Made by a program: the position numbers and the translations under genes. From assembly GCA_002495905.1 (NCBI GenBank), contig DAHJ01000025.1:21995-85994 (forward strand): a DNA stretch of 64,000 nucleotides. The letters run 5' to 3'. Numbering within the stretch: the stretch's first letter is position 1; every line of letters begins with the position of its first letter. The stretch comes from Thaumarchaeota archaeon UBA223 (GTDB lineage: Archaea; Thermoproteota; Nitrososphaeria; Nitrososphaerales; UBA57). The notes beneath the pieces are model-generated. The model ran no database searches and was not told the DNA's origin. It saw only the letters and a program-made list of their open reading frames with translations. Shown piece by piece: positions 7,999 to 63,812 of the stretch.

Positions 7999-7999
7999 T

Positions 8000-40702: not shown

Positions 40703-41221
40703 ATGATGGATTCAAAAATTTTTGCAGTAATTATCGTTGCAATTATTGGAATTGGGGCAGTTTTGTTTATGTTGCCGGAAGATAATAATGAATTAACAGT
40801 AATTGAACCTGAGCCAGTTATAGAAGAAGTTGTAGTTGAGCCTGAACCAGAACCCATAGTCGAACCAGAACCTGAACCGGAACCTGAAAGTAAAGCAATT
40901 GTTGATGAGAATGGAGTATTATCTGGAGAAGTTGAAGTAAAAATTGAAAATCTTCAATTTGGTCCATCTGAAATAACTATAAAGAAAGGAACAACAGTAA
41001 CTTGGAGACAAATAGATATGTCAATTGGAGGAAGTGGAGGAGGAGTAGATTGGCATAACATAGTCGAGGGACCTCCAGGGAAAAGAGGAGATCATGTATT
41101 CAAATCTAAGGAACTAACTTTCAATGGTGGTTTTTCGTTTACATTTAATGAAATTGGTGAATTTGAATATTATTGTGATCCACATCCATTTATGATTGGA
41201 AAAATCACAGTGGTTGAATAG
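40703..41221 (+). CDS. membrane-tethered type-1 copper protein (amicyanin-like cupredoxin)
   Basis: 172 aa. N-terminal TM helix, (E-P)n linker, then a cupredoxin domain with WHN...YYCDPHPFMIGKITVVE, giving His/Cys-x2-His-x2-Met ligand spacing. Confidence 0.85.
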   Translation: MMDSKIFAVIIVAIIGIGAVLFMLPEDNNELTVIEPEPVIEEVVVEPEPEPIVEPEPEPEPESKAIVDENGVLSGEVEVKIENLQFGPSEITIKKGTTVTWRQIDMSIGGSGGGVDWHNIVEGPPGKRGDHVFKSKELTFNGGFSFTFNEIGEFEYYCDPHPFMIGKITVVE

Positions 41222-41280: not shown

Positions 41281-41889
41281 ATGTCAAAGCCATTACTTGA
41301 TAGAAGATCTTTAACTGCATCAATATTATTTGCGTCGCTTGGAGTAGTATTACATCCACCATTCTTTCCACTAGTATTTCCTGCCCCATATGCTCCATTT
41401 TTAATTTATTCAATATGGGAAATTCCATTATACATTTGTTTATTATTATTCGGTCCTTTAACGGCAATGATAGCAGGAGTAATTAATTTTATTTCATTAC
41501 TTGTATTTTTCCCAGGTCAGTTATTCACAGGTCCATTATATAATTTAATAGCAATATACGGTTCCTATTTAGGAATTATATTAATTAAAAAGAGAAAGAA
41601 ATTTGTTTTAGACACAAGTAAAGCAACTAAAGATATTTTTTCAATAAACATGTTATTGATCATTTTATCTCCAATGATATTTAGAACAGTAATAATGACA
41701 GTAGTGAATTTTATTGTATTGCCTCAACCACCTCCAATTGGTTTTTCAATTCCAATGGAAGGAATACCAAGTGTTTTAGGGTTAATAGCAATATTTAATT
41801 CAACGACTATACTATATTCAATACCTTTAGCTTACCTAGTAGCTAGATCAGTAAAATCAGCTATAGACCGAACTTGGATATTTGAATAA
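41281..41889 (+). CDS. polytopic membrane protein (5-6 TM), possibly ECF-type S-component-like
   Basis: 202 aa hydrophobic ORF. The family call is a weak impression only. Confidence 0.35.
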   Translation: MSKPLLDRRSLTASILFASLGVVLHPPFFPLVFPAPYAPFLIYSIWEIPLYICLLLFGPLTAMIAGVINFISLLVFFPGQLFTGPLYNLIAIYGSYLGIILIKKRKKFVLDTSKATKDIFSINMLLIILSPMIFRTVIMTVVNFIVLPQPPPIGFSIPMEGIPSVLGLIAIFNSTTILYSIPLAYLVARSVKSAIDRTWIFE

Positions 41890-44520: not shown

Positions 44521-46782
44521 TTATGCTGTAGCTTGGCGAGATCTAGTGAAGAGTACACCAGAAACGACGACTAGAATTACACCTAATCCAATTGCAATAT
44601 ATGAAATTGGACTAATTGTTTCTACTTCGACTTCTTCAGTGACTATTACTTCACGGACTTCTACCTCACGGCTGATACTTTCTGGTAATTCATCAGGTAA
44701 ACCAAAGGCCATTATAGCTCCAGGAACAGAGCCTCTTAATGGTGGGTTTTGGCTAGTTAGACCACGTCCTCCAAATGATTGTAGGAGTAGAGTCTTACCA
44801 TTAGAATCTTGTCCAATACTTGGTTGAGTATCTAATGCTGAACCAAGATTGAATGTATGTAGAAGTTCACCGTTGTCGGTTGCAACTGCACGAAGCTTAC
44901 CATCGAAACCATTCCAGTAGACTACGCCACCAGATGAAATCATTCCACCTCGGTGTGCAACTGTATCTACAAAGAATTCCCATTCAACTGCACCAGTTCT
45001 TGCATTGATTGCAGTAACTGAGTGGTTTAATTGAGGTGGGAATGGTGCTTCAGAGTTTTTGTTGTTAATGAATCCACCATAGAAACTACCAAATCTTGAT
45101 TCTTGTGGAAGAATCTCTAAGAAGAGAGGTTCATTCTTACAAGATACATAGACATTGTTTCCATCGAATGCCATATCATTTTCAGCACAGCCTGATCCAT
45201 TTGGACTTTGCCAGATGTATTCAGTTGATGGATAATGTTGCCATGGTTTGTTCATGTCAGCTTCAACTCGTGGATCTAAGAAGAACCAGTCGTTGTTTTC
45301 GTCAAGACCGTCAATACCAAGTGCTTCAGAGTGCAATACACCTCGTCCTCGTTCACCATTAGTTGGTCCAGCACGATTATCACATTCTGCATTACAGTAG
45401 TATTTTGTGAATCTTACACCAGGAACTTCAGTGATCCATAATACTTCACCAGTATTTGCATCAAATGCATGAACGTGTCCTTGTTTACATTGTTTCATAA
45501 CAACTCTGCGTCCATCGATTTCTGCAAGTTGTGTATTCCAGGCACAGTCCATGTCCCAAAGGTCTTTAGTAGTACTTTGGAAGTACCATGCTAAGTCACC
45601 TGTCTTACTATCAAGTCCAACAATAGCTGAACCGAATAGACGTGGACCACGGGTATATGTGTGGTTAAAGTCAGGACCTGGTTGTGCAGTTCCGAAGAAG
45701 AGTTTTCCATTTTCTTCGTCAACTACAATCTGTCCCCAGATATTACTTACACCTGCATTGAATGGCATACCAGTCTTTTCATTATAAGTACCTGGATTAC
45801 CAGCCCAATCCCATCTTAGGATATCTTCTGGGACATCACAAGCTTGGATACCTTCGATATAACCAACATCACAAGTGTCAACTAACCATTGACCCCATGC
45901 GGCATATTCGTCAGGGAATAATTCACCGTTAGGTGGTTGATAAAAGAATCTCCAATTAAGGTGCTCATCGGTTGTTGCGTCAATGTTACAAGGGAAACTT
46001 GTACAGGCGCCTAAGTCATATGCAGCTACATATGCACGGCCACCATAGCTTCCTTCCATGTGTCCGCCGACTGCTACAATAATTTGGTTATTGGAACGAT
46101 CAACAACAGGAGCATGTGATCCTTGTGCGTTATACAAACCAGAGTTTGTTTCAACATTTCTACAATGTTGGAATAGAGTGAATACTTCGTCGCCGTTTTC
46201 AGCATCTACTGCTTTGATTGTACAACCAAAGGAGTTTAGCCAAAGTAAACCTTTACCATTCAATTCCCAATAGTTCATTGAATGAGTATGGGCGGCTAGA
46301 GAGTATACAGGTAAACCTGGAGGATTAAGTCCACGATTGTCTGCGACAGATGGACCAATTATATCAGGGTCATCACCGTCTGCAGTTCTTTCACTATACC
46401 AATTCATTGATCCATCAACCGAATCGATTGAGAAGATTGTCTGATAGTTGGTTGTGTAGTAGACATTACCGTCGACAACTAATGGAGGTGCGATACCACC
46501 AGTACCACAAAAGGTCATTGATGAACAACCTATTGAATCTGCATCAGGGATTGGAAATACCCATTGCAATTGAGCAAGGTGTACATTCTCTGATGTTAAT
46601 TGTGTTTGTGGGTTAAAGTTGTGTCCCCAGGAATTTGCATTAATGAATTCCCAGTTTCTCTCTGCTCTTGTAGAACCAAGTGCAGGAGTAACGTTTTGTG
46701 CACTAACCATTGGGGTTAGGAACAAAGATGCTGCAATTAATAGTGCAGCAACTAGGATACTTACGTATACACGTCGAGTCAT
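44521..46782 (-). CDS. PQQ-type quinoprotein dehydrogenase homologue, paralogue A (signal peptide, beta-propeller, acidic linker, C-terminal TM anchor)
   Basis: 753 aa. NWEFINANSWGHNFNPQTQLTSENVHLAQLQWVFP matches the quinoprotein N-terminal signature. Repeated W-containing blades. KDLWDMDCAWN. Tail ISPISYIAIGLGVILVVVSGVLFTRSRQATA. Confidence 0.8.
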   Translation of the reverse strand: MTRRVYVSILVAALLIAASLFLTPMVSAQNVTPALGSTRAERNWEFINANSWGHNFNPQTQLTSENVHLAQLQWVFPIPDADSIGCSSMTFCGTGGIAPPLVVDGNVYYTTNYQTIFSIDSVDGSMNWYSERTADGDDPDIIGPSVADNRGLNPPGLPVYSLAAHTHSMNYWELNGKGLLWLNSFGCTIKAVDAENGDEVFTLFQHCRNVETNSGLYNAQGSHAPVVDRSNNQIIVAVGGHMEGSYGGRAYVAAYDLGACTSFPCNIDATTDEHLNWRFFYQPPNGELFPDEYAAWGQWLVDTCDVGYIEGIQACDVPEDILRWDWAGNPGTYNEKTGMPFNAGVSNIWGQIVVDEENGKLFFGTAQPGPDFNHTYTRGPRLFGSAIVGLDSKTGDLAWYFQSTTKDLWDMDCAWNTQLAEIDGRRVVMKQCKQGHVHAFDANTGEVLWITEVPGVRFTKYYCNAECDNRAGPTNGERGRGVLHSEALGIDGLDENNDWFFLDPRVEADMNKPWQHYPSTEYIWQSPNGSGCAENDMAFDGNNVYVSCKNEPLFLEILPQESRFGSFYGGFINNKNSEAPFPPQLNHSVTAINARTGAVEWEFFVDTVAHRGGMISSGGVVYWNGFDGKLRAVATDNGELLHTFNLGSALDTQPSIGQDSNGKTLLLQSFGGRGLTSQNPPLRGSVPGAIMAFGLPDELPESISREVEVREVIVTEEVEVETISPISYIAIGLGVILVVVSGVLFTRSRQATA

Positions 46783-49142: not shown

Positions 49143-51329
49143 ATGAGAAAAACAATAATTTTGATGTTGATATTTTTATTAACTACTTCAATTATATTTC
49201 AATCTAATAATATCAACACAGAAGCAACAAACAATATTGATATTAAAAATATTGAAAGAGAAAAAAGAAATTGGGAGTTTGTAAATCATGATGCATTTGC
49301 TACAAATTATTCGCCACAAGATCAGATCAACACAGAAAATGTTCACATGTTAGAATTGAAATGGACATTTCCATTTCCACCTGCTACAGAATTTTTAAAA
49401 TATCAAGAAGGAGGGATAGCATTCGAAGGTGCAATAACACCGCCATTAATTATAGATGGGGAAGTATTTGTTGCCTCTAATATGAGAAACGTATACTCTT
49501 TTGAAGCTAATTCAGGAGATATGAATTGGATAAATATTTACGAACATAATTGGAATAAAGCAAAACAAGAATTACCTGAAGTTGCAGGAGGAGCACCGCA
49601 CATACATGGTTTACAATATATTGATGGAAACTTATTCACTAGTACTTTAAACTGTGCAGTAGACGCAATTGATGCGAAATCGGGAGAAATATCATTCAGT
49701 ATTCAGGAAATTTGTAAGAACGTTGAAGGTAATTATTATTCTTGGCCTATGTATGAAGGAATTGGAAAATACGGATCGCCTTCTCATCCAGGTCCAATTT
49801 ATGAAGATGAAAATATCTTAGTAGTTGCAATAACAGGAGCTACAGCATCATGGGGAGGAGGAAGAGCATTTATTGATGGATATAATCTCAATGTCAATCC
49901 GCCCGAAAGATTATGGAGGAAATTTCTTGCACCTCCTGGAGAAGGAGATCCAGAATGGGCATTAAGAGAATGTGATAAAGGATGGTTCTTTTCTTATCCA
50001 GAATGGAAAGAATCAGGAAGAATGGGAATCCCTTGTAACGAGGTTCCTAGGGAGAATTTGATAAACGATTGGGGAGTTCCTAAACACTACACGTCTTCAG
50101 TAGCAGCGATTTGGGGACAAATGGCGTTGGATCAGGAAACTGGAATAGTGTACTTTGGAACTGGAAACCAAGGAGGATGGCCAAATCAGACGCATGTAAC
50201 TGGCCCTAATTTATACTCCAGTGCAACGCTAGCAGTTGATGTAAAATCAGGAGAAATTATTTGGTGGTATCAACAAGTAGCAAGAGACATGGTTGAAGGA
50301 GATACATCATGGAACACAGTACTTACAGAATTGAATATCAATGGGGAAAAGAAAAAAGCTATAATAAAATATTCTGTAACGGGTCTTTTATGGGCACTTG
50401 ATGCAGCTACGGGAGAACCATTGTGGATATATGAATCACCAATACTAAAAAGTAGAACTGATTCAGACGGAGTAATCAGAGGCAGGACGTCAGGACATCC
50501 TTGCATAGGATGTGATCCGAGAACACAAGACGGATACTGGAATGATGTAATGAGTCATTACGACATGCAGGAAAAGAAGTGGTTGAATTATCCTTCGAAA
50601 GATTGGTTTTATTGGATTCCTGCAAGAGCTGGAGAAGCAGATATTGCATTAAATACAGATTTAGAAAGAATTTATGTTCCTGTTGCGGGTGGTGTAGATA
50701 AAGCAATAAAAGCAGATAAATATGGAACACTAGGAGTAAGACCTGGACAAGATTACTACATTGATACTTTATCAAAAAATGTAACATTGTATAGTTTAGA
50801 TGCAAACACAGGAGAAGAAATATGGAGTCATTTTATTGATGGAGTAGCTTACAGAGGAGGAGTTATGACGAGCGGAGGAATTGTATTTTTACCTGTTGCA
50901 GATGGAAATCTATATATGTTCAATGCAGAAAATGGAGAAATAATAGATAAAATGTTTCTAGGTAATTCATTAGTTGTTTTACCTACAATTGGTTATACCA
51001 AAGAAGGAGAAGCAAGATTATTTGTAATTAGTGGCGGAAGAGGAGCATATGCAATAGGAGGGATAACGAAACAAAATGTACCAGGAGCTATATATTCATT
51101 CGGTTTACCTGAAGGTTACATTCAACAAGAAGAGAGCATAGAAGAAAGGGTAATTGAAGAAGTTATCGAAGAAAAAATTGAGATAATTGAACAGGAAGAG
51201 TCAGAATCACAGATAAACGAAGAAACAAAAGAACAAGAAAATCAAATAGAACAAGAGAATTATACGATATATTATTTATTGGGAATAATTTTACTAATTG
51301 TTTTAACAGTAATAATTAGAAGACGGTAA
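49143..51329 (+). CDS. PQQ-type quinoprotein dehydrogenase homologue, paralogue B
   Basis: 728 aa. NWEFVNHDAFATNYSPQDQINTENVHMLELKWTFPFP. Propeller repeats. Acidic IEE-rich linker. Tail YYLLGIILLIVLTVIIRRR. AAGGAG lies 9 nt upstream of the ATG, and the gene starts 17 nt after elp3. Confidence 0.8.
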   Translation: MRKTIILMLIFLLTTSIIFQSNNINTEATNNIDIKNIEREKRNWEFVNHDAFATNYSPQDQINTENVHMLELKWTFPFPPATEFLKYQEGGIAFEGAITPPLIIDGEVFVASNMRNVYSFEANSGDMNWINIYEHNWNKAKQELPEVAGGAPHIHGLQYIDGNLFTSTLNCAVDAIDAKSGEISFSIQEICKNVEGNYYSWPMYEGIGKYGSPSHPGPIYEDENILVVAITGATASWGGGRAFIDGYNLNVNPPERLWRKFLAPPGEGDPEWALRECDKGWFFSYPEWKESGRMGIPCNEVPRENLINDWGVPKHYTSSVAAIWGQMALDQETGIVYFGTGNQGGWPNQTHVTGPNLYSSATLAVDVKSGEIIWWYQQVARDMVEGDTSWNTVLTELNINGEKKKAIIKYSVTGLLWALDAATGEPLWIYESPILKSRTDSDGVIRGRTSGHPCIGCDPRTQDGYWNDVMSHYDMQEKKWLNYPSKDWFYWIPARAGEADIALNTDLERIYVPVAGGVDKAIKADKYGTLGVRPGQDYYIDTLSKNVTLYSLDANTGEEIWSHFIDGVAYRGGVMTSGGIVFLPVADGNLYMFNAENGEIIDKMFLGNSLVVLPTIGYTKEGEARLFVISGGRGAYAIGGITKQNVPGAIYSFGLPEGYIQQEESIEERVIEEVIEEKIEIIEQEESESQINEETKEQENQIEQENYTIYYLLGIILLIVLTVIIRRR
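49857..50611 (+). repeat. mosaic tract in PQQ-B: five blocks 100 percent identical to PQQ-C at constant offset +2160
   Basis: Line-by-line comparison. Blocks 49857-49918, 49943-50089, 50112-50180, 50343-50438 and 50487-50611 equal 52017-52078, 52103-52249, 52272-52340, 52503-52598 and 52647-52771. The intervening segments are strongly divergent. Confidence 0.9.
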
Positions 51330-51335
51330 TTAAGA

Positions 51336-53411
51336 GTGTATAGAAATACAAAGATAATATTTTCAATAATATTTACTGTAATATTATTTCATTCAATTAC
51401 AAATCCAATAATTGAAGGTGTATTCTCAGATGAGAACAATAAAGACAATTGGGAACAAATTAACAATAATGTAAGAGGAACAAATTATTCACCACAAAAT
51501 CAAATCAATGCAGATAATGCTCATATGTTGGAATTGAAATGGGCATTTCCAATACCGCCAGTACAAGAATTCAATGAACAAGGAGTCGCCATAACAGAGG
51601 GATCAATGACTCCGCCTTTGATAATTAATGGCACCGTATATTTTACAACCAACATGAGAGATACTTACGCAATAGATTCGGTAACTGGAAGTTTAAAATG
51701 GATAAGTGTATGGGATTTTGATTGGCAAGAAGGTTATAGAAAATTACCAATAACAGGTGGCGCACTACATGTTCATGGTTTGAATTTAATTAATGGAAAA
51801 TTATTTCCAAGTACAGTTGCATGTTCTATTTTAGCAATAGATCCAGAAAACGGAGAAATTGATTTTGAATTGAATGATACTTGCAGAAATATTGAAGGAA
51901 ATGAGTATAATTGGGATTCTTATACGGGGCCAGGATTATGTGGATTATCTTCGCATCCAGGAATAGAATATGAAAACATCTATGTAACACAAATATGTGG
52001 AGCAGATTCTAATTGGGGAGGAAGAGCATTTATTGATGGATATAATCTCAATGTCAATCCGCCCGAAAGATTATGGAGAACATTCTTATCACCCCCATCA
52101 AGAGGAGATCCAGAATGGGCATTAAGAGAATGTGATAAAGGATGGTTCTTTTCTTATCCAGAATGGAAAGAATCAGGAAGAATGGGAATCCCTTGTAACG
52201 AGGTTCCTAGGGAGAATTTGATAAACGATTGGGGAGTTCCTAAACACTATAATTCAGCAGTGGGTTTGCTATGGGGACAAATGGCGTTGGATCAGGAAAC
52301 TGGAATAGTGTACTTTGGAACTGGAAACCAAGGAGGATGGGTAAATAACACTTACGCAATAGGTCCAAATTTATTTGCGTCTTCAATAGTTGCAATGAAT
52401 GTAACAAATGGAGAATTAATTTGGTGGTATCAAACTGTGCCAAGAGATATGGTACAAGCAGATACTGCTTGGAATACAGTACTAACTGAATTGACGATAA
52501 ACGGGGAAAAGAAAAAAGCTATAATAAAATATTCTGTAACGGGTCTTTTATGGGCACTTGATGCAGCTACGGGAGAACCATTGTGGATATATGAATCAAG
52601 TCTTTTAGAAAGTAGAGTAGGTGAAGACGGTATTCCAAGAGGTAGAACGTCAGGACATCCTTGCATAGGATGTGATCCGAGAACACAAGACGGATACTGG
52701 AATGATGTAATGAGTCATTACGACATGCAGGAAAAGAAGTGGTTGAATTATCCTTCGAAAGATTGGTTTTACATTATACCATTAAGAGCTGGAGAAGCAG
52801 ATATTGCATATAATGAAAAAGAAGACATAGTTATATTGCCTTTAAGTCTCGGATGGGATGCAAGTGCAAAAGCAGGGAATCATAAAGGAATAGGAGTACC
52901 TCCAGGAGAATATAATCTGAATTATCCAAAACAAAAACAGAACACAACAATATTAGGAATAGATGCAAATACAGGAGAAGAAATATGGAGTTATTTTATT
53001 GATGGAGTAGCTTACAGAGGAGGAATAATTGCAACAGAAGATTTGGCAATAATTCCAGCGGCAGATGGAAATTTGTACATATTAAATGGATTAACAGGAG
53101 AACTGTTGCATAGAATATTTCTCAATACGCCATTGACAACTCAACCAACAATAGGTAAGAATTCAGATGGCGAATTTCAGATATATGTTATAAATGGAGG
53201 TAGAGGAAGGCAAGAAGTAGGAGGATTAACACATAATCAAATACCTGGATCTGTCATAGCATTGGGATTATCAGAACAGGTAGAAATAGAGGATATTGTT
53301 AAAGAAGATGCTGAAGAAATCGAATCAGCGATATCAGATTCAACTTTTCTTGGAATTATCTTAATTATTATGTTAATTATGGCAGTAATATTATTGCTAA
53401 GAAGAAGGTAA
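51336..53411 (+). CDS. PQQ-type quinoprotein dehydrogenase homologue, paralogue C
   Basis: 691 aa, GTG start 6 nt after the B stop. NWEQINNNVRGTNYSPQNQINADNAHMLELKWAFPIP. Tail FLGIILIIMLIMAVILLLRRR. Confidence 0.8.
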   Translation: MYRNTKIIFSIIFTVILFHSITNPIIEGVFSDENNKDNWEQINNNVRGTNYSPQNQINADNAHMLELKWAFPIPPVQEFNEQGVAITEGSMTPPLIINGTVYFTTNMRDTYAIDSVTGSLKWISVWDFDWQEGYRKLPITGGALHVHGLNLINGKLFPSTVACSILAIDPENGEIDFELNDTCRNIEGNEYNWDSYTGPGLCGLSSHPGIEYENIYVTQICGADSNWGGRAFIDGYNLNVNPPERLWRTFLSPPSRGDPEWALRECDKGWFFSYPEWKESGRMGIPCNEVPRENLINDWGVPKHYNSAVGLLWGQMALDQETGIVYFGTGNQGGWVNNTYAIGPNLFASSIVAMNVTNGELIWWYQTVPRDMVQADTAWNTVLTELTINGEKKKAIIKYSVTGLLWALDAATGEPLWIYESSLLESRVGEDGIPRGRTSGHPCIGCDPRTQDGYWNDVMSHYDMQEKKWLNYPSKDWFYIIPLRAGEADIAYNEKEDIVILPLSLGWDASAKAGNHKGIGVPPGEYNLNYPKQKQNTTILGIDANTGEEIWSYFIDGVAYRGGIIATEDLAIIPAADGNLYILNGLTGELLHRIFLNTPLTTQPTIGKNSDGEFQIYVINGGRGRQEVGGLTHNQIPGSVIALGLSEQVEIEDIVKEDAEEIESAISDSTFLGIILIIMLIMAVILLLRRR
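52017..52771 (+). repeat. mosaic tract in PQQ-C, partner of 49857-50611
   Basis: See the partner feature. Identical blocks of 62, 147, 69, 96 and 125 nt, with no indels between them. Confidence 0.9.
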
Positions 53412-53461: not shown

Positions 53462-55450
53462 GTGCAGAAAGTAAGCATATTAATTTTTATTTTAATTATT
53501 TCAGCCTTAACTTCATTGAATACTGAAACATTATTTTCAAGTGCGATTGATGATAACGGATTTGATTCAATTGCGCCGAATTATGATTATCGTGCTACAG
53601 GATTCAATCCACAAACTCAAATAAATAAAGAAAATGTCAATAATCTTGAATTAAAATGGGTACACGCATGGCCCTTGCCCGAATCAATAGATGGGATTGA
53701 GCCAAGAGTTGGGTCTATTGCAAATTCCATAATTGTAGATGGAATAGTATACAATAGAATGGAAGATTTGAGAATTTCAGCAATTGATGCAAAAACTGGA
53801 GAAAGTATTTGGTCATTTCAAGCAGACCCATATCTAGTAAATATAGAAATTGCAAAAAGAGAATTACCCGTTAATCTAGATTTTTATCCCTCATTATCTA
53901 GTCATGCACACAGTTTTTCTTTTGCAGAAAATAAAATATTTGCACCATGGCCAAATTGTCAAGTTTTTGGTCTCAATGCAAAAACTGGTGAAATTGAATT
54001 TAGATTAAAGACGCCAACTTGTAAAGATTTAGAAGGAAATGAAGGTTTATTCAAAGGTTTACAATCTTCAGGTCCTGTGTTTGACACTGTCAATCGTATT
54101 TTAATTTACGGAACAGGAGGAAGAGAAGCTGTAGAAGGAGGAAGAGGTGCATTTAGAGGATATGATCTTGATTCAGGAGAATTATTATGGACATTTTATT
54201 TGATGCCCCCGCAAGATGTGGGAGATCCAGAATGGACTATAAGAGTAGCCGATAAAGGTTGGATTCAAGGAATAAGAGCATCCAATATTCCAGAAGATAT
54301 TTTAAGAAATGACTGGGGAAGATGTCCAGAAAATTGTGGATTTGGAAAAGGAGATATGGGAATAGGATGGGGTCAATGGGCAGTAGATGAAGATAATGGA
54401 ATTGCATATTTAGCGACAGGTAATCCATCGCCAAGTTGGAATGCAACATACAGACCAGGGCCAAACGTTTTTAGTAATTCAGTTTTAGCGATAGAAACTA
54501 AAACAGGGAATTTACTGTGGTGGCATCAGATTGTAGCACATGATTTAGGAGACTTAGATTGTTCTTGGAATACAGTATTAGCAGAGATAGATGGAACAAA
54601 AACAGTTTTCAAATTATGTAAAGGAGCTTTTCTTTATGCAATGAATGCAGAAACTGGAGAATTATTATGGAGTACAGATTATCATCCACATGTTAAACGA
54701 GGATCAATAGGTCCAGATCCAAATTTTGATTTGGCATTGGATCCATTGAATAAAGATGATATGAATAAACCATGGGTGTCATATCCTGGCAATGAACCAA
54801 ACTGGAGAAAAGAATCAGGAGGAGCAGAGTCAGATGTTACATTGGCATATGGAAAAGTATTTTCTACAACTTATCATAAATGGTCATTACAAAAGATTAC
54901 ATCAGTAGAGCCATCAATGCGAGATTCATGGGGAAGAATTTCAATGTATTCAGATCAAGAACTTGCATCGAATGCGACAGTATGGGCACATGATGCAAAA
55001 ACTGGAGAACTGATTTGGAAATATGACATAGACAAAGTAGGAATAAGAGGTGGAGTAACTGCTTCAGGAGAGATGATTTGGTTTTGTGACACTGATGGAG
55101 TAATAAGAGCTTTAGATGAGGAAAATGGAAATGTGTTGTGGGAAAGATCTCAAGGTCATCAATGTCCAGTACAACCATCATTTGGAGCTGATAAAGATGG
55201 AAATATCAAGATATTTTCTTTAATAGGGTCAGGAGGAATATTAGGAAGATCAGAACCAATACCTGGGGCGTTACTTGCATATGGATTATCGGGAAACACA
55301 GAAGCAAATGTAAAAAAAGATGTAGAAGTGATTGTTGAAACAGAGATAATAACAGAAGAAATCATAAGTCCAGTTTCATATTTGATACTTGGATTTTCAT
55401 TATTATTGATAATTACTTCGTTATTGATTTTGAGAAAGTCTAAAAATTAA
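53462..55450 (+). CDS. PQQ-type quinoprotein dehydrogenase homologue, paralogue D
   Basis: 662 aa, GTG start. YDYRATGFNPQTQINKENVNNLELKWVHAWP. HDLGDLDCSWN. Tail ISPVSYLILGFSLLLIITSLLILRKSKN. Confidence 0.78.
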   Translation: MQKVSILIFILIISALTSLNTETLFSSAIDDNGFDSIAPNYDYRATGFNPQTQINKENVNNLELKWVHAWPLPESIDGIEPRVGSIANSIIVDGIVYNRMEDLRISAIDAKTGESIWSFQADPYLVNIEIAKRELPVNLDFYPSLSSHAHSFSFAENKIFAPWPNCQVFGLNAKTGEIEFRLKTPTCKDLEGNEGLFKGLQSSGPVFDTVNRILIYGTGGREAVEGGRGAFRGYDLDSGELLWTFYLMPPQDVGDPEWTIRVADKGWIQGIRASNIPEDILRNDWGRCPENCGFGKGDMGIGWGQWAVDEDNGIAYLATGNPSPSWNATYRPGPNVFSNSVLAIETKTGNLLWWHQIVAHDLGDLDCSWNTVLAEIDGTKTVFKLCKGAFLYAMNAETGELLWSTDYHPHVKRGSIGPDPNFDLALDPLNKDDMNKPWVSYPGNEPNWRKESGGAESDVTLAYGKVFSTTYHKWSLQKITSVEPSMRDSWGRISMYSDQELASNATVWAHDAKTGELIWKYDIDKVGIRGGVTASGEMIWFCDTDGVIRALDEENGNVLWERSQGHQCPVQPSFGADKDGNIKIFSLIGSGGILGRSEPIPGALLAYGLSGNTEANVKKDVEVIVETEIITEEIISPVSYLILGFSLLLIITSLLILRKSKN

Positions 55451-56225: not shown

Positions 56226-58325
56226 CTAACCACTAGCGCCAAATTTCCAGTTTCCACTTGTAATAAACATAGTAGCAGATATTGCTAGTATTATAAATGA
56301 TATAATTACCATAAGATAAGACAATGGACTGATTACTGTTTCGGTTTTAATTGTTTCAATTTCAGTAACTACCTCTTGAACTTGAGATGGAGCAGCTGGA
56401 GCAGCTGGATCTGCAGGAACAACAACTACCTCTTCGGAAATAGCAACAGATGATTCATCTCCTAATCCTAATGCAATCATTGCACCTGGAATTCCTGTTT
56501 GTCCCCAAGATGCAATAGACATACCGCCTGTTTGTACGAATACTTTCATATCTCCTTGACTATCTGCACCAAGTGTAGCTTGTGTCCAAAGACCAATTCC
56601 AAATGAACGTTTTGAAAGAAGTTCGCCAGTTTCAGAGTTCAATAGATACAGCCATCCATCACCGGATGGAACATATACAACTCCACCAGATACAGTTAAA
56701 CCACCTCTAAAACCTGCGCCGTCAATGAAGAATCTCCAAAGTTCTTCTCCGGTATCAGTATCTAAAGCATAAATTGACGAGTTAGTAGGATGACTTGTTG
56801 GAAGCATGACTAATTGATTGCCAAAGTCTTCTGGGTATTCCGGTGAAACAACAGTTACTGGCATGTTATAAGATCCCAAGTATAATCTTTCGCCATCATA
56901 GGCCATATCGGCTTCAAGGATACCAGCAAAATTTGCACTAGTGAATGATGTTTCTCCTACATGAGAAGTAGGCCATGCACGCTGTAAATCATCAATATTT
57001 TTTGGGTCTGGATAGGACATTCCAGGTTGAGGAAGCCAAGCATCTGGAGGATGATATATCCAGAATGGTTCTCCTGTAGCCGCATCGAGTGCGTACATAA
57101 ATCCATTCTTACATCCTTTGAATATAGCTTTCTTGCCTTCTACTTCACCAAGAATTGCATTCCAAGCACAATCGTAATCCCACATATCATGAGGTACGGT
57201 TTGATACCACCAGACAAACTCACCAGTTTTTGCATCAAGTGCTACGATAGCACTGCCATAAAGATTAACTCCAGGTCTTCTTAATGCATTAGGATATGGA
57301 CCACTTTCGCCAGTGCCAAGATAAACAAGACCAGTTTCTTGATCAATTAAATAATGACCCCAAACAGTAGCAACAGAACTAGCAGTATGAACCATTCCAC
57401 GTGAACTTTGTGGATTAATCCAGTCATTTTTAAGATTTTCTTCTGGAACTTCGTTACATGGAACTCCCAATCTACCAGTGTCTAACCACTCAGGAAATGA
57501 AAAGAAATAACCTATATTACAATGATGTAAAGCCCAATCTGGATCTCCTTCAGCAGGTGGCATCAAAAAGGTTTGCCAAATTCGTTTTGGATTATCCATA
57601 TCACTTACATCATAACCTGCAATGAATGAACGTCCTCCGTTACCTGAAGATCCCATAACAGGAACAACCATTATATCTTCATAGAATTGTGGAGGATGAG
57701 TTCCAATACTTGCATAGTAACCTTGATTTCCCCAAGCTTGAGCTTCTTCCTCAGTTCCACACATTTCCATTACGGAGAAAACAACATCTCCTAAAAGAGA
57801 ATCATGTCCGTCAACTTGACATGATTGAAGACTTGGTATAATTATTCCTTTATCATCATAATAATTTACTGCATGAGTGTGAGGTAACATTCCTTTAACA
57901 TGAGGATAGGTTTGTTGTAAAATATCATTATCGTATGCAACAACATTATTCCAGATTAAACTTCCACTAGCAGAATCGACCGCAACTAAAGCTCTTTGGT
58001 TTGTAGCAGAATAAGCTATACCGTCAACAATAAGAACTGGAGAACCTGAACCTGCATATGTCTTAGCGCCACCTATGGTTGGATAAGTAGTTGGAGGATA
58101 AGGATAAATCCATTTCATTTCTAAATTGTCGGCATTATCTCGATTAATTATTGATTGAGGATTATGACTACGGCCGTATTGACCATAATTAATCATGTCC
58201 CAATTGGACATTTCTCGAGTCAATTCTTGGCCAGAAGCAGTAATAGGATTATCGTCAAAATTTAGAGGAAATGCAATAGATGCAATTAATAAAATGAATA
58301 ATACGAATAGTTGAATTTGTCTCAC
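56226..58325 (-). CDS. PQQ-type quinoprotein dehydrogenase homologue, paralogue E
   Basis: 699 aa, GTG start. NWDMINYGQYGRSHNPQSIINRDNADNLEMKWIYPYP. HDMWDYDCAWN. Tail ISPLSYLMVIISFIILAISATMFITSGNWKFGASG. Confidence 0.8.
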   Translation of the reverse strand: MRQIQLFVLFILLIASIAFPLNFDDNPITASGQELTREMSNWDMINYGQYGRSHNPQSIINRDNADNLEMKWIYPYPPTTYPTIGGAKTYAGSGSPVLIVDGIAYSATNQRALVAVDSASGSLIWNNVVAYDNDILQQTYPHVKGMLPHTHAVNYYDDKGIIIPSLQSCQVDGHDSLLGDVVFSVMEMCGTEEEAQAWGNQGYYASIGTHPPQFYEDIMVVPVMGSSGNGGRSFIAGYDVSDMDNPKRIWQTFLMPPAEGDPDWALHHCNIGYFFSFPEWLDTGRLGVPCNEVPEENLKNDWINPQSSRGMVHTASSVATVWGHYLIDQETGLVYLGTGESGPYPNALRRPGVNLYGSAIVALDAKTGEFVWWYQTVPHDMWDYDCAWNAILGEVEGKKAIFKGCKNGFMYALDAATGEPFWIYHPPDAWLPQPGMSYPDPKNIDDLQRAWPTSHVGETSFTSANFAGILEADMAYDGERLYLGSYNMPVTVVSPEYPEDFGNQLVMLPTSHPTNSSIYALDTDTGEELWRFFIDGAGFRGGLTVSGGVVYVPSGDGWLYLLNSETGELLSKRSFGIGLWTQATLGADSQGDMKVFVQTGGMSIASWGQTGIPGAMIALGLGDESSVAISEEVVVVPADPAAPAAPSQVQEVVTEIETIKTETVISPLSYLMVIISFIILAISATMFITSGNWKFGASG

Positions 58326-58469: not shown

Positions 58470-59120
58470 TTGGAGTCAAAAAAAGGAAATTTTAATTTTC
58501 CAATCATTATAATTATTTTTGCAGTAGCAATTGGAATACTATTTTTATTCAATACTCCAGCACCTGTAGAACTAAATGTAGAAGAAAATATTGAAGATAT
58601 AGAGGAAAAAGAAGAAAATGTAAAAGAAGAAGATGTAAAAGTAGAAGAAATTGAAATAAATCCAGATATTCCAGTTGTTGAACCTGAGTTGCCAGAAATA
58701 GTAGAAGAAATAATACAAGAAGAAGTAAGAAGAATTAATGAAGATTGTCCATTTGGTAAAGAATTAAGAAGTACACCTGAGAATCCAATGACTTATACTT
58801 GTAAATTAATAACTCTCGAAAATGGGGGACAGTTTGGAGATGTAAGATTGTCAATAAATAATGGAGAGTTTGAGCAGCCAGAGATTCAAGTAAAAAAAGG
58901 TACTACAGTGACATGGGTGATGAGAGATAAAACAGCAGGTGCTGGAGGAGATGTTCCATATCATCAAGTATCTTCAATAGACGGGTTATTTGATTCTGGA
59001 GAATTATTTGTATCAGGGGAGAATAAATTCAGTTATGTATTTGACGAAGTTGGAGAATTCGAATATAATTGTCCGCCACATCCTTGGATGGTTGGCAAAA
59101 TTATTGTCGTAGATGAATAA
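58470..59120 (+). CDS. membrane-tethered type-1 copper protein (amicyanin-like cupredoxin), second copy
   Basis: 216 aa. N-terminal TM helix, long acidic linker, and a cupredoxin with YHQ...YNCPPHPWMVGKIIVVDE (Cys-x2-His-x2-Met). Confidence 0.82.
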   Translation: MESKKGNFNFPIIIIIFAVAIGILFLFNTPAPVELNVEENIEDIEEKEENVKEEDVKVEEIEINPDIPVVEPELPEIVEEIIQEEVRRINEDCPFGKELRSTPENPMTYTCKLITLENGGQFGDVRLSINNGEFEQPEIQVKKGTTVTWVMRDKTAGAGGDVPYHQVSSIDGLFDSGELFVSGENKFSYVFDEVGEFEYNCPPHPWMVGKIIVVDE

Positions 59121-59220: not shown

Positions 59221-61476
59221 CTAAGTAGATCCTGCCTTTGAGCGTTGGAATAGAACGCCAGCTACTACAATAAGAACTACACCAAGTCCAATAGCTACAT
59301 AAGATACTGGGCTGATTACTTCTTCAGTAGTAACAACTTCGACTTCTTTTTCAACGACTGTTTCTACAGGTACTTCGACTTCAACGACGACTTCTTTTTC
59401 TACTTCAACTTCGACTACGTTTTCAATTTCGACTACTCTTTCGACTTCGACTTCGACTTCTTCAATAATAGTCTCAACATCTGGTAGTACGTCTGGTAGA
59501 CCAAGTGCGACGAGTGAACCCTCAGTTGCAGTGTTTCCATATACGAAACCACCACCACCACCTACGTGGATAAAGATCTTGTGTTTACCGTCAGAGTCTG
59601 CGCCAATTGTTGGCATTACACTAACAGGTACACCGAAGAATCTCTTGTGAACTAGTTCACCAGTGTTTGCATCGAATATGTATAGATTTCCGTCACCGGC
59701 ATATCCATATACAGCTGAACCTGTGGCCATTAATCCACCACGGAAACCTACATCAGGAATGAATGCACTCCAGTCAGCTTCGCCTGTGTTGACGTTAACT
59801 GCATAGATTGTAGTATTAACAGGATGACCGCTTGCTTGGATGTTACTAGCTTGGTTGCCAAAGTCGACAACGTTACCAGTTGTTGTCCAACGTGGATCAT
59901 TGTAATTTGCAACGAATATGTATTTGCCGTTGTAAGCCATATCAGCTTCGAGTGCTCCTGCTAACCATGGATTCCAGAGTGCTGGTGATGGATCAGGTGC
60001 GTTCAACCAATCTTTGTTCATGTGTTCAAATGTCATACGACAACATGCGTCAGGATGGTTTGGATCACCATCAGGTCCAACTCCATAGTTTGTACCAGGT
60101 GCAGTTCTCCAAGTTGTTGGAGCTTCCCATACCCATACAGGTTCACCAGTGGCTGCATTCAATGCATATGCCATTCCGTTCTTACAACCTTTGATTAAGA
60201 CTTTAGTTCCTTGAGCTTTGGCCATTATGCCACCCCATGAACAGTCCCAATCCCATAAGTCGTGAGGATTAGAATGGAACCACCATTGGATTTTACCAGT
60301 ATCTACTTTGAGTGCAACGATAGCACTACCAAAGAGGTTAGGTCCAAATCTGTATGATGCATTACTATAAGGTCCTACATCTCCAGTTCCGATATATACT
60401 AAACCAAGTTCCTCGTCAATTGGGAAATTACCCCAAACTACTGACATTGCGCTAGCAGTGTGGACTTCTCCGAAATGAGGAGTTCCTTCTTTCATGTTAA
60501 TCCAGTCGTTTTCAACTGCTTCGTCTGGAACTTCAGTACAGTTTACTGCAAGTTTTCCAGTGTCAAAGAAGTCAGGTGCAGAGAAGTACCAACCATTGCC
60601 GTTTGCTTCTGTACAAGCGTCAATAGCCCAGTTTTTCTGTGTACCACGATTATCTGGCATTAACCAAGTATTCCATAATTCAACAGGGTTACTTGGATCA
60701 GTCATGTCAAATGCTTTAACAGAAGATCTTCCTCCTCCGCCACTAGCACCCATGATTGGCCAAATCATTGTATTACCGCTAAATGCAGGTGGGTGATTTG
60801 ATTGTCCTGAAATTCTACCTTTGCTTCCTAAAGTTCCGATGATTCCTTCATCAGGATTTCCGTATTCAGCTACGGTACCACAAAGGTCTTCAACTCCAAG
60901 TTTCCATGCCAAGCTACCATCAGCTGCATTCCATCCGCTAAGTAGACAAGGTTGACTACTGGTAATTAACCATCCGCTATCACCAAACTGTCTATAATAG
61001 TTTATTGCGTGAGTATGTCCCCATGCACTTTGGAAGAATGGGTATTCTGCAGTAATAGCAGGTCCATCCCATAAGTTTGCTGGTTCATCTGTAAAGTAAA
61101 CTTCTTCACCTGTTTTTGCATCAACAGCGTGTATTGCACGTGAGTTTTTACCTACATATGCAACACCGTCGACGATAAGAACTGGTGCGCTTGAACCAGC
61201 TTGGGAATTACCCCAAGAGAAGTCATTGGTTGGATAAGGAAACATCCATTTCATTTCCAGCCATTGAGCATTTTCATTATTTATTTCGAATTGTGGGCTA
61301 TAACTACCGCCAGTAGGCTGATAATTAATAAATTCCCAATTACCAGTTACAACTTTTGGTACACCACCACCGCCTGGAGGACCTCCAGGGTCAAATGCAT
61401 TAGCAACTAATGCAAATGAAGATAGTGCCAAAATTAAAGCAACTAGTAACCCAACTATAGTTAAGTGTCGAGTCAT
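59221..61476 (-). CDS. PQQ-type quinoprotein dehydrogenase homologue, paralogue F
   Basis: 751 aa. NWEFINYQPTGGSYSPQFEINNENAQWLEMKWMFPYP. HDLWDWDCSWG. A very long (E/V)n linker. Tail ISPVSYVAIGLGVVLIVVAGVLFQRSKAGST. Confidence 0.8.
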   Translation of the reverse strand: MTRHLTIVGLLVALILALSSFALVANAFDPGGPPGGGGVPKVVTGNWEFINYQPTGGSYSPQFEINNENAQWLEMKWMFPYPTNDFSWGNSQAGSSAPVLIVDGVAYVGKNSRAIHAVDAKTGEEVYFTDEPANLWDGPAITAEYPFFQSAWGHTHAINYYRQFGDSGWLITSSQPCLLSGWNAADGSLAWKLGVEDLCGTVAEYGNPDEGIIGTLGSKGRISGQSNHPPAFSGNTMIWPIMGASGGGGRSSVKAFDMTDPSNPVELWNTWLMPDNRGTQKNWAIDACTEANGNGWYFSAPDFFDTGKLAVNCTEVPDEAVENDWINMKEGTPHFGEVHTASAMSVVWGNFPIDEELGLVYIGTGDVGPYSNASYRFGPNLFGSAIVALKVDTGKIQWWFHSNPHDLWDWDCSWGGIMAKAQGTKVLIKGCKNGMAYALNAATGEPVWVWEAPTTWRTAPGTNYGVGPDGDPNHPDACCRMTFEHMNKDWLNAPDPSPALWNPWLAGALEADMAYNGKYIFVANYNDPRWTTTGNVVDFGNQASNIQASGHPVNTTIYAVNVNTGEADWSAFIPDVGFRGGLMATGSAVYGYAGDGNLYIFDANTGELVHKRFFGVPVSVMPTIGADSDGKHKIFIHVGGGGGFVYGNTATEGSLVALGLPDVLPDVETIIEEVEVEVERVVEIENVVEVEVEKEVVVEVEVPVETVVEKEVEVVTTEEVISPVSYVAIGLGVVLIVVAGVLFQRSKAGST

Positions 61477-61582: not shown

Positions 61583-62056
61583 ATGAGTAAATGGACTTTA
61601 CTAGGAATCTTCATTTTAATTTTATTGCCGGGAATAGATGCAACTAGTAAAGAAATTACCTCTATATCGGTAAAAGTTTCCAATACTAATTCACAAAATA
61701 ATGTTGTAGAGATTTCTGCAAATTTACAAAATAATAATGCAGAGCCAATTAGCGAACAGGTATTAGTTTTTTATATAAATGATCAAATATTTGCAAGTAA
61801 AATTACTAATGAAATAGGATCGTCAAATATTCAATTTCAAGCTTTGGATGAATTATACAAAGTGGAGATAAAATTTGAAGGATCGGAACTTTATCATGAA
61901 TCAATAAGTGAAATAGTAATTATTGAAAAAACAAATCAAGAAAACACAAGTGAACAGAACATTCCAAGTGAGTTGTTAATTATAGTATCAATACTTACTC
62001 TAGGAATTGTAGGGTCAGGAATATTATATTATCTAAATAAAATCTCGAAGAATTAA
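61583..62056 (+). CDS. small secreted beta-rich (Ig-like?) protein with C-terminal TM anchor
   Basis: 157 aa. Signal peptide, about 100-aa beta-strand-rich region, and C-terminal LLIIVSILTLGIVGSGILYYLNK. Confidence 0.45.
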   Translation: MSKWTLLGIFILILLPGIDATSKEITSISVKVSNTNSQNNVVEISANLQNNNAEPISEQVLVFYINDQIFASKITNEIGSSNIQFQALDELYKVEIKFEGSELYHESISEIVIIEKTNQENTSEQNIPSELLIIVSILTLGIVGSGILYYLNKISKN

Positions 62057-62889
62057 GTAGATGCGTCTTGTCTGTTAAAGAGAATAAATGAAATAGCAAC
62101 TGGTACAATAACCCATAAGAGAAGTACAGCAGTAAGAATTCGAGATGCAGTAATTGAACCATAATTCTGTAACAAGTAAGCTGCTTGTGGACCAAGTTCA
62201 CCTCGTAAAGGACTTTCTGCCATATGCATTAATGCAAGTATTCTAGTAGTTTCAACTGGGTTTGCTAAAGTAAGAGGTATCAACAATGAATCAGCATCTA
62301 GCGCTACAGTAATTACACCTAAGAAACCACTATCATAGATTACAACTAAAACGAACCAAAGGAATAAACCTGTACCAATAGCTGCTGCACGAGTTTTTAC
62401 AGAAACTGAAACAATAAATCCCAAACCAACTGCTGCTCCAGCAAGTAATAATGAATATGCTAAAGCGAAAAGGAATGATGCAATAAACTCTGGATTGGTA
62501 GAATAAACAATCAACTCTGCACCTCCATATCCAAGAAACATAGCCAAGGTAAGAGAAGTTACAAGTCCAACATATTTACCAAAGAATACTTCAACTTTGG
62601 TAGCAGGTTGTGCAAGAAGATATTCCATAGTTCCTACTTCTCGTTCGCCCGCTATAGTAGTAGAAGACATAGCTAGAGATACTAAAGGAACAAGTGGTAC
62701 GGCAAGCGTAACAAGAGTTCCGACAACCATGCCCGGATAATCACTAGGTAGTAATCCACCGGCACCCAGAATAATATAAGGTACACCAAGTGCTAGAAAG
62801 AAGAAGGTTACACCAAATGTGATAAGCCATTTGCTTTGGAGTGAATCCTTTAGTTCTTTTCTTAAAATCATAACAAATGGGCTAGTCAT
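62053..62889 (-). CDS. ABC-2 type transporter permease (NosY/COG1277-like)
   Basis: 278 aa with 6 TM segments. Its start overlaps the ATPase stop by 1 nt. Confidence 0.7.
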   Translation of the reverse strand: MTSPFVMILRKELKDSLQSKWLITFGVTFFFLALGVPYIILGAGGLLPSDYPGMVVGTLVTLAVPLVPLVSLAMSSTTIAGEREVGTMEYLLAQPATKVEVFFGKYVGLVTSLTLAMFLGYGGAELIVYSTNPEFIASFLFALAYSLLLAGAAVGLGFIVSVSVKTRAAAIGTGLFLWFVLVVIYDSGFLGVITVALDADSLLIPLTLANPVETTRILALMHMAESPLRGELGPQAAYLLQNYGSITASRILTAVLLLWVIVPVAISFILFNRQDAST

Positions 62890-63812
62890 TAGTTTTCTTC
62901 TCCAGATGTAATTTTCTTAAATGCGTCCTCAAGATTAGGTTCTTCAATTTTGAAATCAGTAATTTCACAACTTTTTTCTCTTAAATTATTAAGAATAGAG
63001 ACTTTTTTAGACGGATCTATTCTCATTTCATACCAATTTCCTTTAACTTGAATATCATTTGCTCCTGCTTTCTCTAGTGCGGAAATTGCATCTTGTTCCT
63101 TTGAGTTATCAGGAATTTCTACAAACATTTGAGATGTCAAATCTAATTGTTTAAACAAATCAGCTACAGATGATTTAATAACTAATTTGCCTTTATTTAG
63201 TAACATAATTTTTTCAGCAATATGATCAACGTCACCCAACAAGTGAGTTGTAAGTACAACAGTTTTACCTTCCTTAACAAGTAAACTAATAAGATTTCGG
63301 AATTCAACCTGACGATTAACATCAAGATTTGCAGTTGGTTCGTCGAGAAGAAGAACAGGAGGGTCAGAAAGTAGTGCAACTGCAAGCATAAGTCTTTGTT
63401 GCATTCCTCCAGATAAAGCACCGACAGGTTGTCGAGCCCATAATTCAAGACCGACGAATTCAAGAAGTTCACGAAGACGCGAACGTTTTACATCACGCAT
63501 ATCTCCAAAATATCTTAATGATTCTTGTACAGTCATATCATTGTATAAGGTTGGATGTTGAGGAACATATCCAATTTGATACTTTGCTTTCTTAGGATCT
63601 TTTTGTATATCATAACCATCAATTTTTATTTGTCCATCAAATTGTTTCAATCCTAAAAGACATTTTAAGAAAGTAGTTTTACCTGCACCATTTGGTCCCA
63701 ATAATGCCCAGACACCACCACGTTCAACTTGAAGTGATAAATCTTCAAGAGCTTTAAAGTCACCATATTGCTTAGTGACATTAACGGCATCTACAATAAT
63801 ATTTGTTGACAT
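62889..63812 (-). CDS. ABC transporter ATP-binding protein (ABC-2/NosF/CcmA-like)
   Basis: 307 aa. Walker A GPNGAGKT, signature LSGGMQQR, Walker B LLLDEPT. Confidence 0.9.
   Translation of the reverse strand: MSTNIIVDAVNVTKQYGDFKALEDLSLQVERGGVWALLGPNGAGKTTFLKCLLGLKQFDGQIKIDGYDIQKDPKKAKYQIGYVPQHPTLYNDMTVQESLRYFGDMRDVKRSRLRELLEFVGLELWARQPVGALSGGMQQRLMLAVALLSDPPVLLLDEPTANLDVNRQVEFRNLISLLVKEGKTVVLTTHLLGDVDHIAEKIMLLNKGKLVIKSSVADLFKQLDLTSQMFVEIPDNSKEQDAISALEKAGANDIQVKGNWYEMRIDPSKKVSILNNLREKSCEITDFKIEEPNLEDAFKKITSGEEN

Follow-up and report, generated by a model that had tools for sequence, protein, structure and literature searches.

Six paralogous dehydrogenases of the pyrroloquinoline quinone (PQQ) type, here called A through F, are encoded in a 64,000-nucleotide stretch of the thaumarchaeal contig DAHJ01000025.1 (the window), and four of them (A, D, E, and F) end in a C-terminal tail built around the motif [I/V]SPxSY. 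This tail is a defined module of fixed geometry, in which an acidic stalk is followed by the motif, a glycine-rich membrane helix, and a basic end, and it is under strong purifying selection, being more conserved than the catalytic domain. We hold with moderate confidence that the tail is a retained stalk-plus-helix anchor, the helix of which makes a sequence-specific contact tied to the function of the PQQ dehydrogenases.

Host enzymes of the tail

The window originates from a heterotrophic marine thaumarchaeon (HMT) of the deep sea. Its DNA is AT-rich (approximately 33% G+C) and carries archaeal housekeeping-type genes, including those for an archaeal-type ATPase subunit K and an undecaprenyl-diphosphatase. 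The nearest genomic relatives of F were found in metagenome-assembled genomes (MAGs) labelled Thaumarchaeota, Nitrosopumilales, or Nitrososphaerales, among them ASW8_bin1 and ASW2_bin45; ASW8 is one HMT MAG of the set published by Aylward and Santoro (PMC7300363). In that study, each HMT MAG had 4 to 19 PQQ dehydrogenases, 19 of the 21 dehydrogenase families had a transmembrane domain, and the enzymes were given as membrane-localized and were very highly expressed. The same enzymes lack the Cys-Cys motif, and blue copper proteins or quinone have been proposed as their electron acceptors (PMC7300363).

The six long open reading frames (ORFs) were translated to proteins of 662 to 753 aa with hydrophobic N-termini and C-terminal helices. 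All six matched PF01011, the PQQ propeller, with 105 to 161 bits (gathering cutoff 26.7). Their scores against TIGR03075, the methanol/ethanol dehydrogenase subfamily, were 98 to 159 bits, far under the cutoff of 480, and A through F are therefore divergent relatives of this curated subfamily rather than members of it. No cytochrome domain was present among the Pfam matches of the six proteins. An AlphaFold2 model of F, built with 33 homologues, had a mean predicted local distance difference test score (pLDDT) of 80.5, and its best Foldseek matches were type I PQQ alcohol dehydrogenases (9m2c, E = 5e-29), with PedH, XoxF, and methanol dehydrogenase also matched, as was 8gy2_A, a type III alcohol dehydrogenase (ADH) of acetic acid bacteria (E = 7e-29). 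F has an eight-bladed propeller fold like that of solved quinoproteins. A hydrophobicity scan of the translations gave A through F the layout of type I single-pass proteins, with an N-terminal signal peptide-like segment, one C-terminal helix, and a positive cytoplasmic side; the model placed the helices of F at residues 2-22 and 724-748.

The coordinates of all parts were verified by translation. Paralogue F (751 aa; 59221..61476, minus strand; PF01011 E = 5.6e-30) consists of a signal peptide, the PQQ-type propeller, an (EV)n stalk, and the canonical tail. Its stalk, DVLPDVETIIEEVEVEVERVVEIENVVEVEVEKEVVVEVEVPVETVVEKEVEVVTTEEV (59317..59493), which at the DNA level contains a degenerate 6-nt tandem repeat of 14.8 copies at 59372-59460, is followed by the motif ISPVSY (residues 721-726; 59299..59316), the transmembrane helix VAIGLGVVLIVVAGVLF (59248..59298), and the cytoplasmic end QRSKAGST (59224..59247), with the stop codon at 59221-59223. 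Paralogue A (753 aa; 44521..46782, minus strand) is built in the same order, with a linker at 44617-44694, the motif ISPISY at 44599-44616, the helix IAIGLGVILVVVSGVLF at 44548-44598, and TRSRQATA at 44524-44547. Paralogue D (662 aa; 53462..55450, plus strand) has the motif ISPVSY at 55364-55381, a diverged helix, LILGFSLLLIITSLLIL, at 55382-55432, and RKSKN at 55433-55447. In paralogue E (699 aa; 56226..58325, minus strand), the motif ISPLSY (56316-56333) and the helix LMVIISFIILAISATMF (56265-56315) lead into an atypical end, ITSGNWKFGASG (56229-56264). The two remaining PQQ-type propellers, B (728 aa; 49143..51329, plus strand) and C (691 aa; 51336..53411, plus strand), have C-terminal helices at 51270-51317 and 53346-53399, respectively.

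These translations reproduced exactly the four C-terminal tails and motif positions given in the initial annotation of this DNA, and also its statement that B and C have a hydrophobic helix and RRR but no ISPxSY. The distance of 78 nt from motif to stop that it reported for A and F was right as a coordinate difference, with the Tyr followed by 25 codons and the stop in both genes. The tripartite arrangement of motif, helix, and basic end that it ascribed to all four tails was borne out for A, D, and F and for the family consensus, and did not extend to E, whose end has a single Lys and no basic cluster.

Conservation of the tail

In all six frames of the window, SPxSY occurred 4 times, only in the tails of A, D, E, and F, and each time it lay 25 to 29 codons before the stop and abutted the hydrophobic helix. 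From the six-frame composition, approximately 1.3 occurrences of SPxSY would be expected by chance, and only 0.045 of the stricter [IV]SP[IVL]SY, which was also seen 4 times; in 100 Markov-1 simulations, the stricter motif was found 0.08 times on average and never more than once.

Alignment of 150 distinct tails gave the 32-residue consensus x-T-V-[T/E]-V-E-[T/V]-[I/V]-S-P-[I/V/L]-S-Y-[V/A]-A-I-G-[L/I]-G-V-V-L-V-V-[V/I]-[A/S]-G-V-L-[F/Y]-x-R-[R/S]-[K/R]-K. The Pro of the motif was conserved in 100% of these tails and the Tyr in 98%. Ser preceded the Pro in 89%, replaced otherwise by Asn or Gly, and a Ser or Thr lay between Pro and Tyr in 99%. Within the helix, Gly was conserved at +4 (96%) and +6 (80%) after the Tyr and also at +14, and the first basic residue, an Arg, was exactly at +18 from the Tyr in 128 of the 150. 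The same tail closes nearly all thaumarchaeal homologues of F, down to 32-33% overall identity. The linker upstream of it varies among these homologues, being (EV)n in some and made of KEVIKEVP or PGPERIVEV repeats in others.

Comparisons between homologous proteins indicated that the tail changes more slowly than the enzyme it is attached to. A and F were 34% identical in the catalytic part and 62% identical in the tail, and for F against 49 homologues the median identities were 51% and 69%, respectively. Gene conversion was rejected as the source of the similarity between the A and F tails; third codon positions in these tails were just 38% identical, so the similarity is held by purifying selection. 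Tails without the motif behaved differently. D and its orthologue in locus L002, in which the motif has been lost, were 90% identical in the catalytic part and 25% in the tail, and C and its L002 orthologue, neither with the motif, were 91% and 44% identical. B and C, which serve as a natural control for the drift rate of a motif-less anchor, were 66% and 21% identical. D-type tails are decaying in orthologues, with VNPISY in L003 and the motif gone in L002; the E-type tail has been kept in orthologues in L001, L002, and L003.

Without the motif, then, the tail drifts almost freely, and conservation of the motif and of the helix is lost together, which indicates that motif and helix form one constrained unit. 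Motif-less paralogues and orthologues still retain a helix and a basic end, and a plain helix anchor is thus a viable end state in the PQQ family. Taken together, these data bear out the suggestion of the initial annotation that the motif is not just the incidental border of an anchor helix; the motif belongs to a module of fixed geometry that is conserved above the catalytic domain.

The same data decide against neutral shared ancestry, in which the tails would be alike through a common paralogous ancestor and would have no role past hydrophobic anchoring. In its favor, all four carriers in the window are paralogous, and most carriers outside the window also belong to the PQQ family. However, the tail is above the catalytic domain in conservation over a deep divergence in which synonymous sites are saturated, motif-less tails diverge almost fully between orthologues that are approximately 90% identical, and the cassette is also found on unrelated proteins (described below). 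The selection data contradict neutral ancestry, and we regard it as scarcely credible.

B and C are adjacent tandem duplicates (49143-53411) with long identical protein stretches and unrelated tails, and their genes share repeats at 50000-50028 and 52160-52188.

Distribution of the tail

A profile of the 32-residue tail was searched against 1.84 billion representative proteins (E ≤ 0.001) and gave 93 matches, all but a few of which stop at most a few residues short of the C-terminus. Most were thaumarchaeal PQQ propellers or their C-terminal fragments, and every match with a taxonomic label was from Thaumarchaeota. A handful of carriers were not PQQ enzymes. One (P0171) combines PD40 repeats with a PPC domain, and its longer ORF in locus L010 includes a signal peptide; another (P0201) is a Vgb-lyase/NHL-like propeller; a third (P0193) had a weak DUF3224-like match, as did the tail carrier P0233; and two (P0136 and P0188) are small Cys-containing proteins. 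Each of these 5 non-PQQ carriers is a metagenome singleton or nearly so, and their linkers are of the lineage-specific type seen in PQQ enzymes from the same lineage. A search with the N-terminal domain of P0201 returned one homologue, 59% identical, with a degenerate tail motif that lacks the Pro.

The non-PQQ carriers were known solely from this exhaustive search; a word-indexed search with a longer profile gave just 34 short fragments, which carried no domain information. A scan of metagenome contigs with a narrower tail alignment yielded 79 loci (671 kb) with 98 tail-bearing ORFs, which comprised 78 PQQ propellers, 13 fragments at contig ends, and 7 short ORFs or remnants, and no full-length non-PQQ carrier was among them. 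Nor was the tail found on any non-PQQ protein in the window or the HMT loci, and the spread over many unrelated carriers that marks sorting domains was not seen. The other exported proteins of the window (cupredoxins, a 157-aa protein, and a Vgb-lyase-like protein) use other anchors and have no such tail. Confinement of the motif to the paralogue family, which the initial annotation had linked to simple shared ancestry, thus held for nearly all carriers, these being PQQ enzymes, and failed for the few unrelated exported ones. The tail is essentially specific to PQQ-type dehydrogenases of HMT and related non-marine lineages.

Two further observations were made in these searches. Five miniproteins of 84 to 104 aa (P0124, P0138, P0164, P0150, and P0155) have a signal peptide, an EV stalk, and the tail, and nothing else, and in 3 of them the signal peptide contains a lipobox-like L-[AS]-[AST]-C. 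All except P0155 are on metagenome contigs of less than 1 kb, and the miniproteins may be artefacts of assembly or gene calling. Also, [A/S]SP[M/L]TY in the last propeller blade of bacterial PQQ dehydrogenases (the C-termini of P0057-P0111) resembles SP[I/V]SY; this likeness is probably a coincidence.

Possible processing, shedding, or modification

The initial annotation had proposed that ISPxSY could be a recognition motif for processing or for attachment to lipid or the S-layer. In this scenario, a membrane enzyme, either archaeosortase-like or of a new class, would recognize [I/V]SPxSY together with the helix, remove the helix and basic end, and transfer the protein to lipid or the S-layer. 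The tail has the appearance of such a signal in several respects. It lies at the extreme C-terminus of exported proteins in A, D, E, and F, as is the case for C-terminal sorting domains, and its tripartite layout has a fixed spacing. A low-complexity linker lies upstream, and linkers of this kind also precede the signals of PGF-CTERM, LPXTG, and PEP-CTERM proteins. The Pro and Tyr are invariant, selection is stronger than on the enzyme, and at least 3 unrelated N-terminal architectures (PD40 with PPC, Vgb-lyase-like, and DUF3224-like) carry the tail. PEFG-CTERM domain proteins also exist in marine ammonia-oxidizing Thaumarchaeota, namely strains of Nitrosopumilus (PMC6593220).

However, no curated -CTERM model matched. 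When the isolated tails were scanned against NCBIfam at E ≤ 10, the scores stayed below the cutoffs for GG_III-CTERM (12.9 vs. 22 bits), Loki-CTERM (11.2 vs. 19.9 bits), and PEF-CTERM (8.3 vs. 23 bits), and only the hydrophobic part was aligned. The carriers come almost all from a single family, with no further non-PQQ carrier in the 671 kb of loci, and those that are not PQQ enzymes are metagenome singletons, one of which has a homologue with a degenerate motif. The helix residues are conserved like the motif, which is odd for a segment that is to be discarded, and the motif-less paralogues work with a plain helix anchor.

The enzyme that such a signal would need was sought in the window and approximately 0.84 Mb of related loci, which together amount to approximately 0.9 Mb, are partly redundant, and are biased to the neighborhoods of PQQ genes. 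Pfam or NCBIfam models were run on most of the 74 multi-helix ORFs in this DNA, including all recurrent families and the 5 of the window, and no archaeosortase, exosortase, rhombosortase, rhomboid, or CPBP protease was found among those scanned. The sortase-like gene that the initial annotation had expected of a genome with this signal was thus not found among the ORFs scanned from the window and the related loci. PEFG, PGF, PEF, and PIP motifs were not present before C-terminal helices in the window or in loci L001-L016. In the available portion of Data Set S3 of PMC7300363, the sole Exosortase_EpsH cluster listed comprises 3 genomes; the contig that represents it bears a name unlike those of HMT contigs, which suggests that this cluster does not belong to HMT.

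As a sorting or attachment signal, then, ISPxSY has in its favor the tripartite layout and a few unrelated carriers, and against it the lack of a matching -CTERM model, the one main carrier family, the conserved helix, and the search for an enzyme, which found none in the DNA scanned. We consider a cleaved sorting signal unlikely. The more specific proposal of an "SPxSY-CTERM", a new sorting signal of genome-streamlined Thaumarchaeota processed by an enzyme unrelated to known archaeosortases, is decidedly unlikely. If true, it would mean that the most highly expressed exoenzymes of abundant dark-ocean archaea become attached to lipid or the S-layer from helix-anchored precursors.

A membrane protein of approximately 200 aa with 5 or 6 helices is encoded a few kb from A-type PQQ genes both in the window (41281-41889, plus strand) and in 8 loci (among them L043, at 8880-9512, and L093, at 7779-8384, as well as L046, L036, L041, L042, and L058). 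Many Pro, Gly, Trp, and Asn residues in it are invariant (LHPPF.PL..PAPYAPFL.Y.IWEIPL; FFPGQL..GP.YN). Its position near A-type genes made it a candidate processing enzyme. Pfam and NCBIfam gave no match for it, and as it also lacks a conserved Cys, it was not accepted as an archaeosortase; a single-sequence model (pLDDT 53) was too poor for a fold search. Our guess is that it is a cofactor or vitamin transporter.

Another possible scenario is regulated shedding, in which a rhomboid or site-2 protease would free the dehydrogenase under some conditions by acting on a substrate site formed by the juxtamembrane SPxSY and the outer, Gly-rich portion of the helix. The type I orientation and the helix-destabilizing Gly near the outer leaflet are consistent with this scenario. 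The window contains a gene for an M50 site-2 protease that has a PDZ domain (19464-20675), and the available portion of Data Set S3 lists a rhomboid-family cluster in 9 genomes with its representative on one of the authors' own contigs (PMC7300363). However, such proteases are widespread housekeeping enzymes with no link to PQQ genes, and the one in the window is regarded as being of this housekeeping type; no rhomboid was found in any of the related loci. The likeness to rhomboid substrate rules is loose, and shedding would not account for a helix conserved over its whole length or for the conserved placement of the Arg. We judge it very unlikely.

The conservation could also reflect modification, if the Ser and Thr residues of TVTVET-ISPxSY were O-glycosylated by a PMT-like transferase as the protein leaves the translocon. 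Thr or Ser is conserved at -7, -5, -2, 0, and +3 relative to the motif in the 150 tails, and a PMT_2-like polytopic glycosyltransferase is encoded directly downstream of tail-bearing PQQ genes at 3 loci of a non-marine lineage with 45-48% G+C (including 12427-13992 in L017 and 1349-2902 in L061, minus strand). However, the Pfam match to PMT_2 is weak (23 bits vs. a cutoff of 26), the adjacency is seen in that one lineage and not in the HMT window, and the conserved helix would go unexplained. Glycosylation would be compatible with a retained anchor and no substitute for it; as the explanation of the tail, it is highly improbable.

A probable retained anchor with a specific contact

The tail has one main carrier family, its helix is as conserved as its motif, the motif-less paralogues are anchored by a helix, and no enzyme was found in the DNA searched; for these reasons we rank a retained anchor first, and on balance we prefer it to a general sortase-type system. 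Conservation of the helix at the level of the motif would be unexpected in a segment that is cut off and discarded.

In a retained anchor of this kind, the signal peptide and the C-terminal helix with its basic end would place the propeller outside the cell, and the low-complexity acidic linker would keep it off the membrane. The motif [I/V]SP[I/V/L]SY would mark the exact start of the membrane helix, with Ser-Pro capping its N-terminus and Tyr at the lipid-water interface. The model of F, in which the C-terminal helix starts directly after S722-P723, fits a role of these 2 residues as the N-cap and an interfacial role of the Tyr. The mature protein would keep the Gly-rich helix of 17 residues (AIG-x-G....[A/S]G) and the Arg. 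Through this helix, the dehydrogenase could associate with itself or dock to a membrane partner, for which the cupredoxins with their N-terminal anchors are candidates, and either contact would couple the enzyme to the respiratory chain.

Several points weigh against a retained anchor. A cassette that is found on unrelated exported proteins is the hallmark of a sorting module, and a plain helix cap does not need such invariance. Helices that are Gly-rich in the outer leaflet are typical of intramembrane protease substrates. The confidence of the F model is low at the motif (pLDDT approximately 42-67) and in the linker (approximately 42), and the search for a processing enzyme reached only part of any genome. 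No partner protein of the tail helix was identified, the cupredoxins being candidates. Finally, a motif, a helix, and a basic end after a low-complexity linker are exactly the layout of sortase, exosortase, and archaeosortase signals (PMC6098224).

In an abundant group of deep-sea archaea, the enzymes that carry the tail are the most highly expressed ones of energy metabolism. The tail evolves more slowly than the enzyme and is the obvious candidate for the link of these dehydrogenases to the membrane and to a respiratory chain free of cytochrome c, whether it serves for docking or for sorting. It also provides a sharp 32-residue marker for PQQ dehydrogenases, and for any proteins sorted with them, in metagenomes.

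Neighboring genes

A cupredoxin with an N-terminal membrane helix and an acidic linker is encoded between E and F (58470..59120, plus strand; PF00127 E = 5e-8), and its synteny is conserved (9658-10320 in L003). A second cupredoxin, with the N-terminal helix FAVIIVAIIGIGAVLF and an EP/EV acidic linker, is located approximately 3 kb from A (40703..41221, plus strand; PF00127 E = 8e-12). The E/V/P-rich linker and N-terminal helix of the cupredoxins are a mirror image of the dehydrogenase tails, and in the second cupredoxin the helix sequence AIIGIGAVLF is similar to AIGLGVVL..GVLF in the helix of the tail. These proteins are possible electron acceptors and membrane partners of the dehydrogenases. 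An NrfD/DsrP/QrcD-like membrane subunit of the quinone-interacting type (162-1532 in L049, minus strand) lies a few kb away from a PQQ gene with the tail at two loci of the non-marine lineage and is a possible membrane electron acceptor complex.

Conserved neighbors also include a protein of 255 aa, encoded between D and E (55456-56223, minus strand), that has an N-terminal anchor and gave weak SnoaL/DUF4440-like matches, and one of 157 aa (61583-62056, plus strand) that combines a signal peptide with a C-terminal helix lacking the motif. An ABC-2 transporter pair beside F (62053-63812, minus strand) is syntenic in L001, L003, and L004. Between A and B, a 534-aa ORF (47521-49125, plus strand) was judged by eye from its translation to be Elp3-type radical-SAM/acetyltransferase-like; it is probably unrelated to the PQQ cluster.

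Comparison with known systems

The tail constitutes a new family of C-terminal domains that is sharply defined and of the broad kind catalogued as "-CTERM". That it was undescribed, as the initial annotation had supposed, agrees with our searches: no curated C-terminal sorting model matched, the motif string was absent from the literature searched, and a C-terminal motif is mentioned neither in PMC7300363 nor in a 2026 study of 104 HMT-type genomes. Its closest parallels are set out here.

Archaeosortase signals, such as PGF-CTERM with ArtA in Haloferax volcanii and the thaumarchaeal PEFG-CTERM, also lie at the extreme C-terminus of exported proteins (PMC6098224). Like the tail, PGF-CTERM and PEFG-CTERM are archaeal and have a short signature abutting a hydrophobic helix, basic residues after the helix, and a low-complexity linker upstream. 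In contrast, the signature here is SPxSY instead of PGF or PEFG and fits no curated model, and the helix sequence is strongly conserved. The carriers are almost all of one enzyme family rather than many unrelated surface proteins, and a cognate archaeosortase was not found in the window and related loci.

The substrates of sortase A, described by the LPXTG model TIGR01167, likewise have a motif, a helix, and a basic end at the C-terminus. The only near-threshold hit to this model was the tail of D (55355-55447; 17.1 bits vs. a cutoff of 15.9), and it covered only the hydrophobic and basic part. The LPXTG pentapeptide is in no tail of A through F, and the alignments begin at model position 9-12 and miss it. 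Some thaumarchaeal relatives of the tail (P0217 and P0224) are nevertheless named "LPXTG cell wall anchor domain-containing protein" in databases. To our knowledge, neither sortase A nor a peptidoglycan acceptor is to be expected in Thaumarchaeota. Since the pentapeptide is also missing, the label is best read as a misannotation, which a definition of the tail would correct on some of these enzymes.

Plain C-terminal anchors, such as that of Sulfolobus SlaB, also hold an exported protein on a single C-terminal helix; mature SlaB keeps this helix, and its host archaeon has no archaeosortase (PMC6098224). In the window, B, C, and the 157-aa neighbor are of this type. Unlike these anchors, the SPxSY tail has an invariant juxtamembrane motif, a fixed length, conserved Gly residues, and slower evolution than the catalytic domain, which would not be expected of an anchor that is purely hydrophobic.

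Bacterial membrane quinoproteins, such as membrane-bound glucose dehydrogenase and the type III ADH 8gy2, are similar in that a PQQ propeller outside the cytoplasmic membrane feeds the respiratory chain. The bacterial enzymes are held by an N-terminal multi-helix quinone-binding domain, which in membrane-bound glucose dehydrogenase has 5 helices, or by cytochrome subunits. The thaumarchaeal enzymes, in contrast, have no cytochrome domain, and their propeller is borne by a long acidic stalk that leads into just one C-terminal helix.

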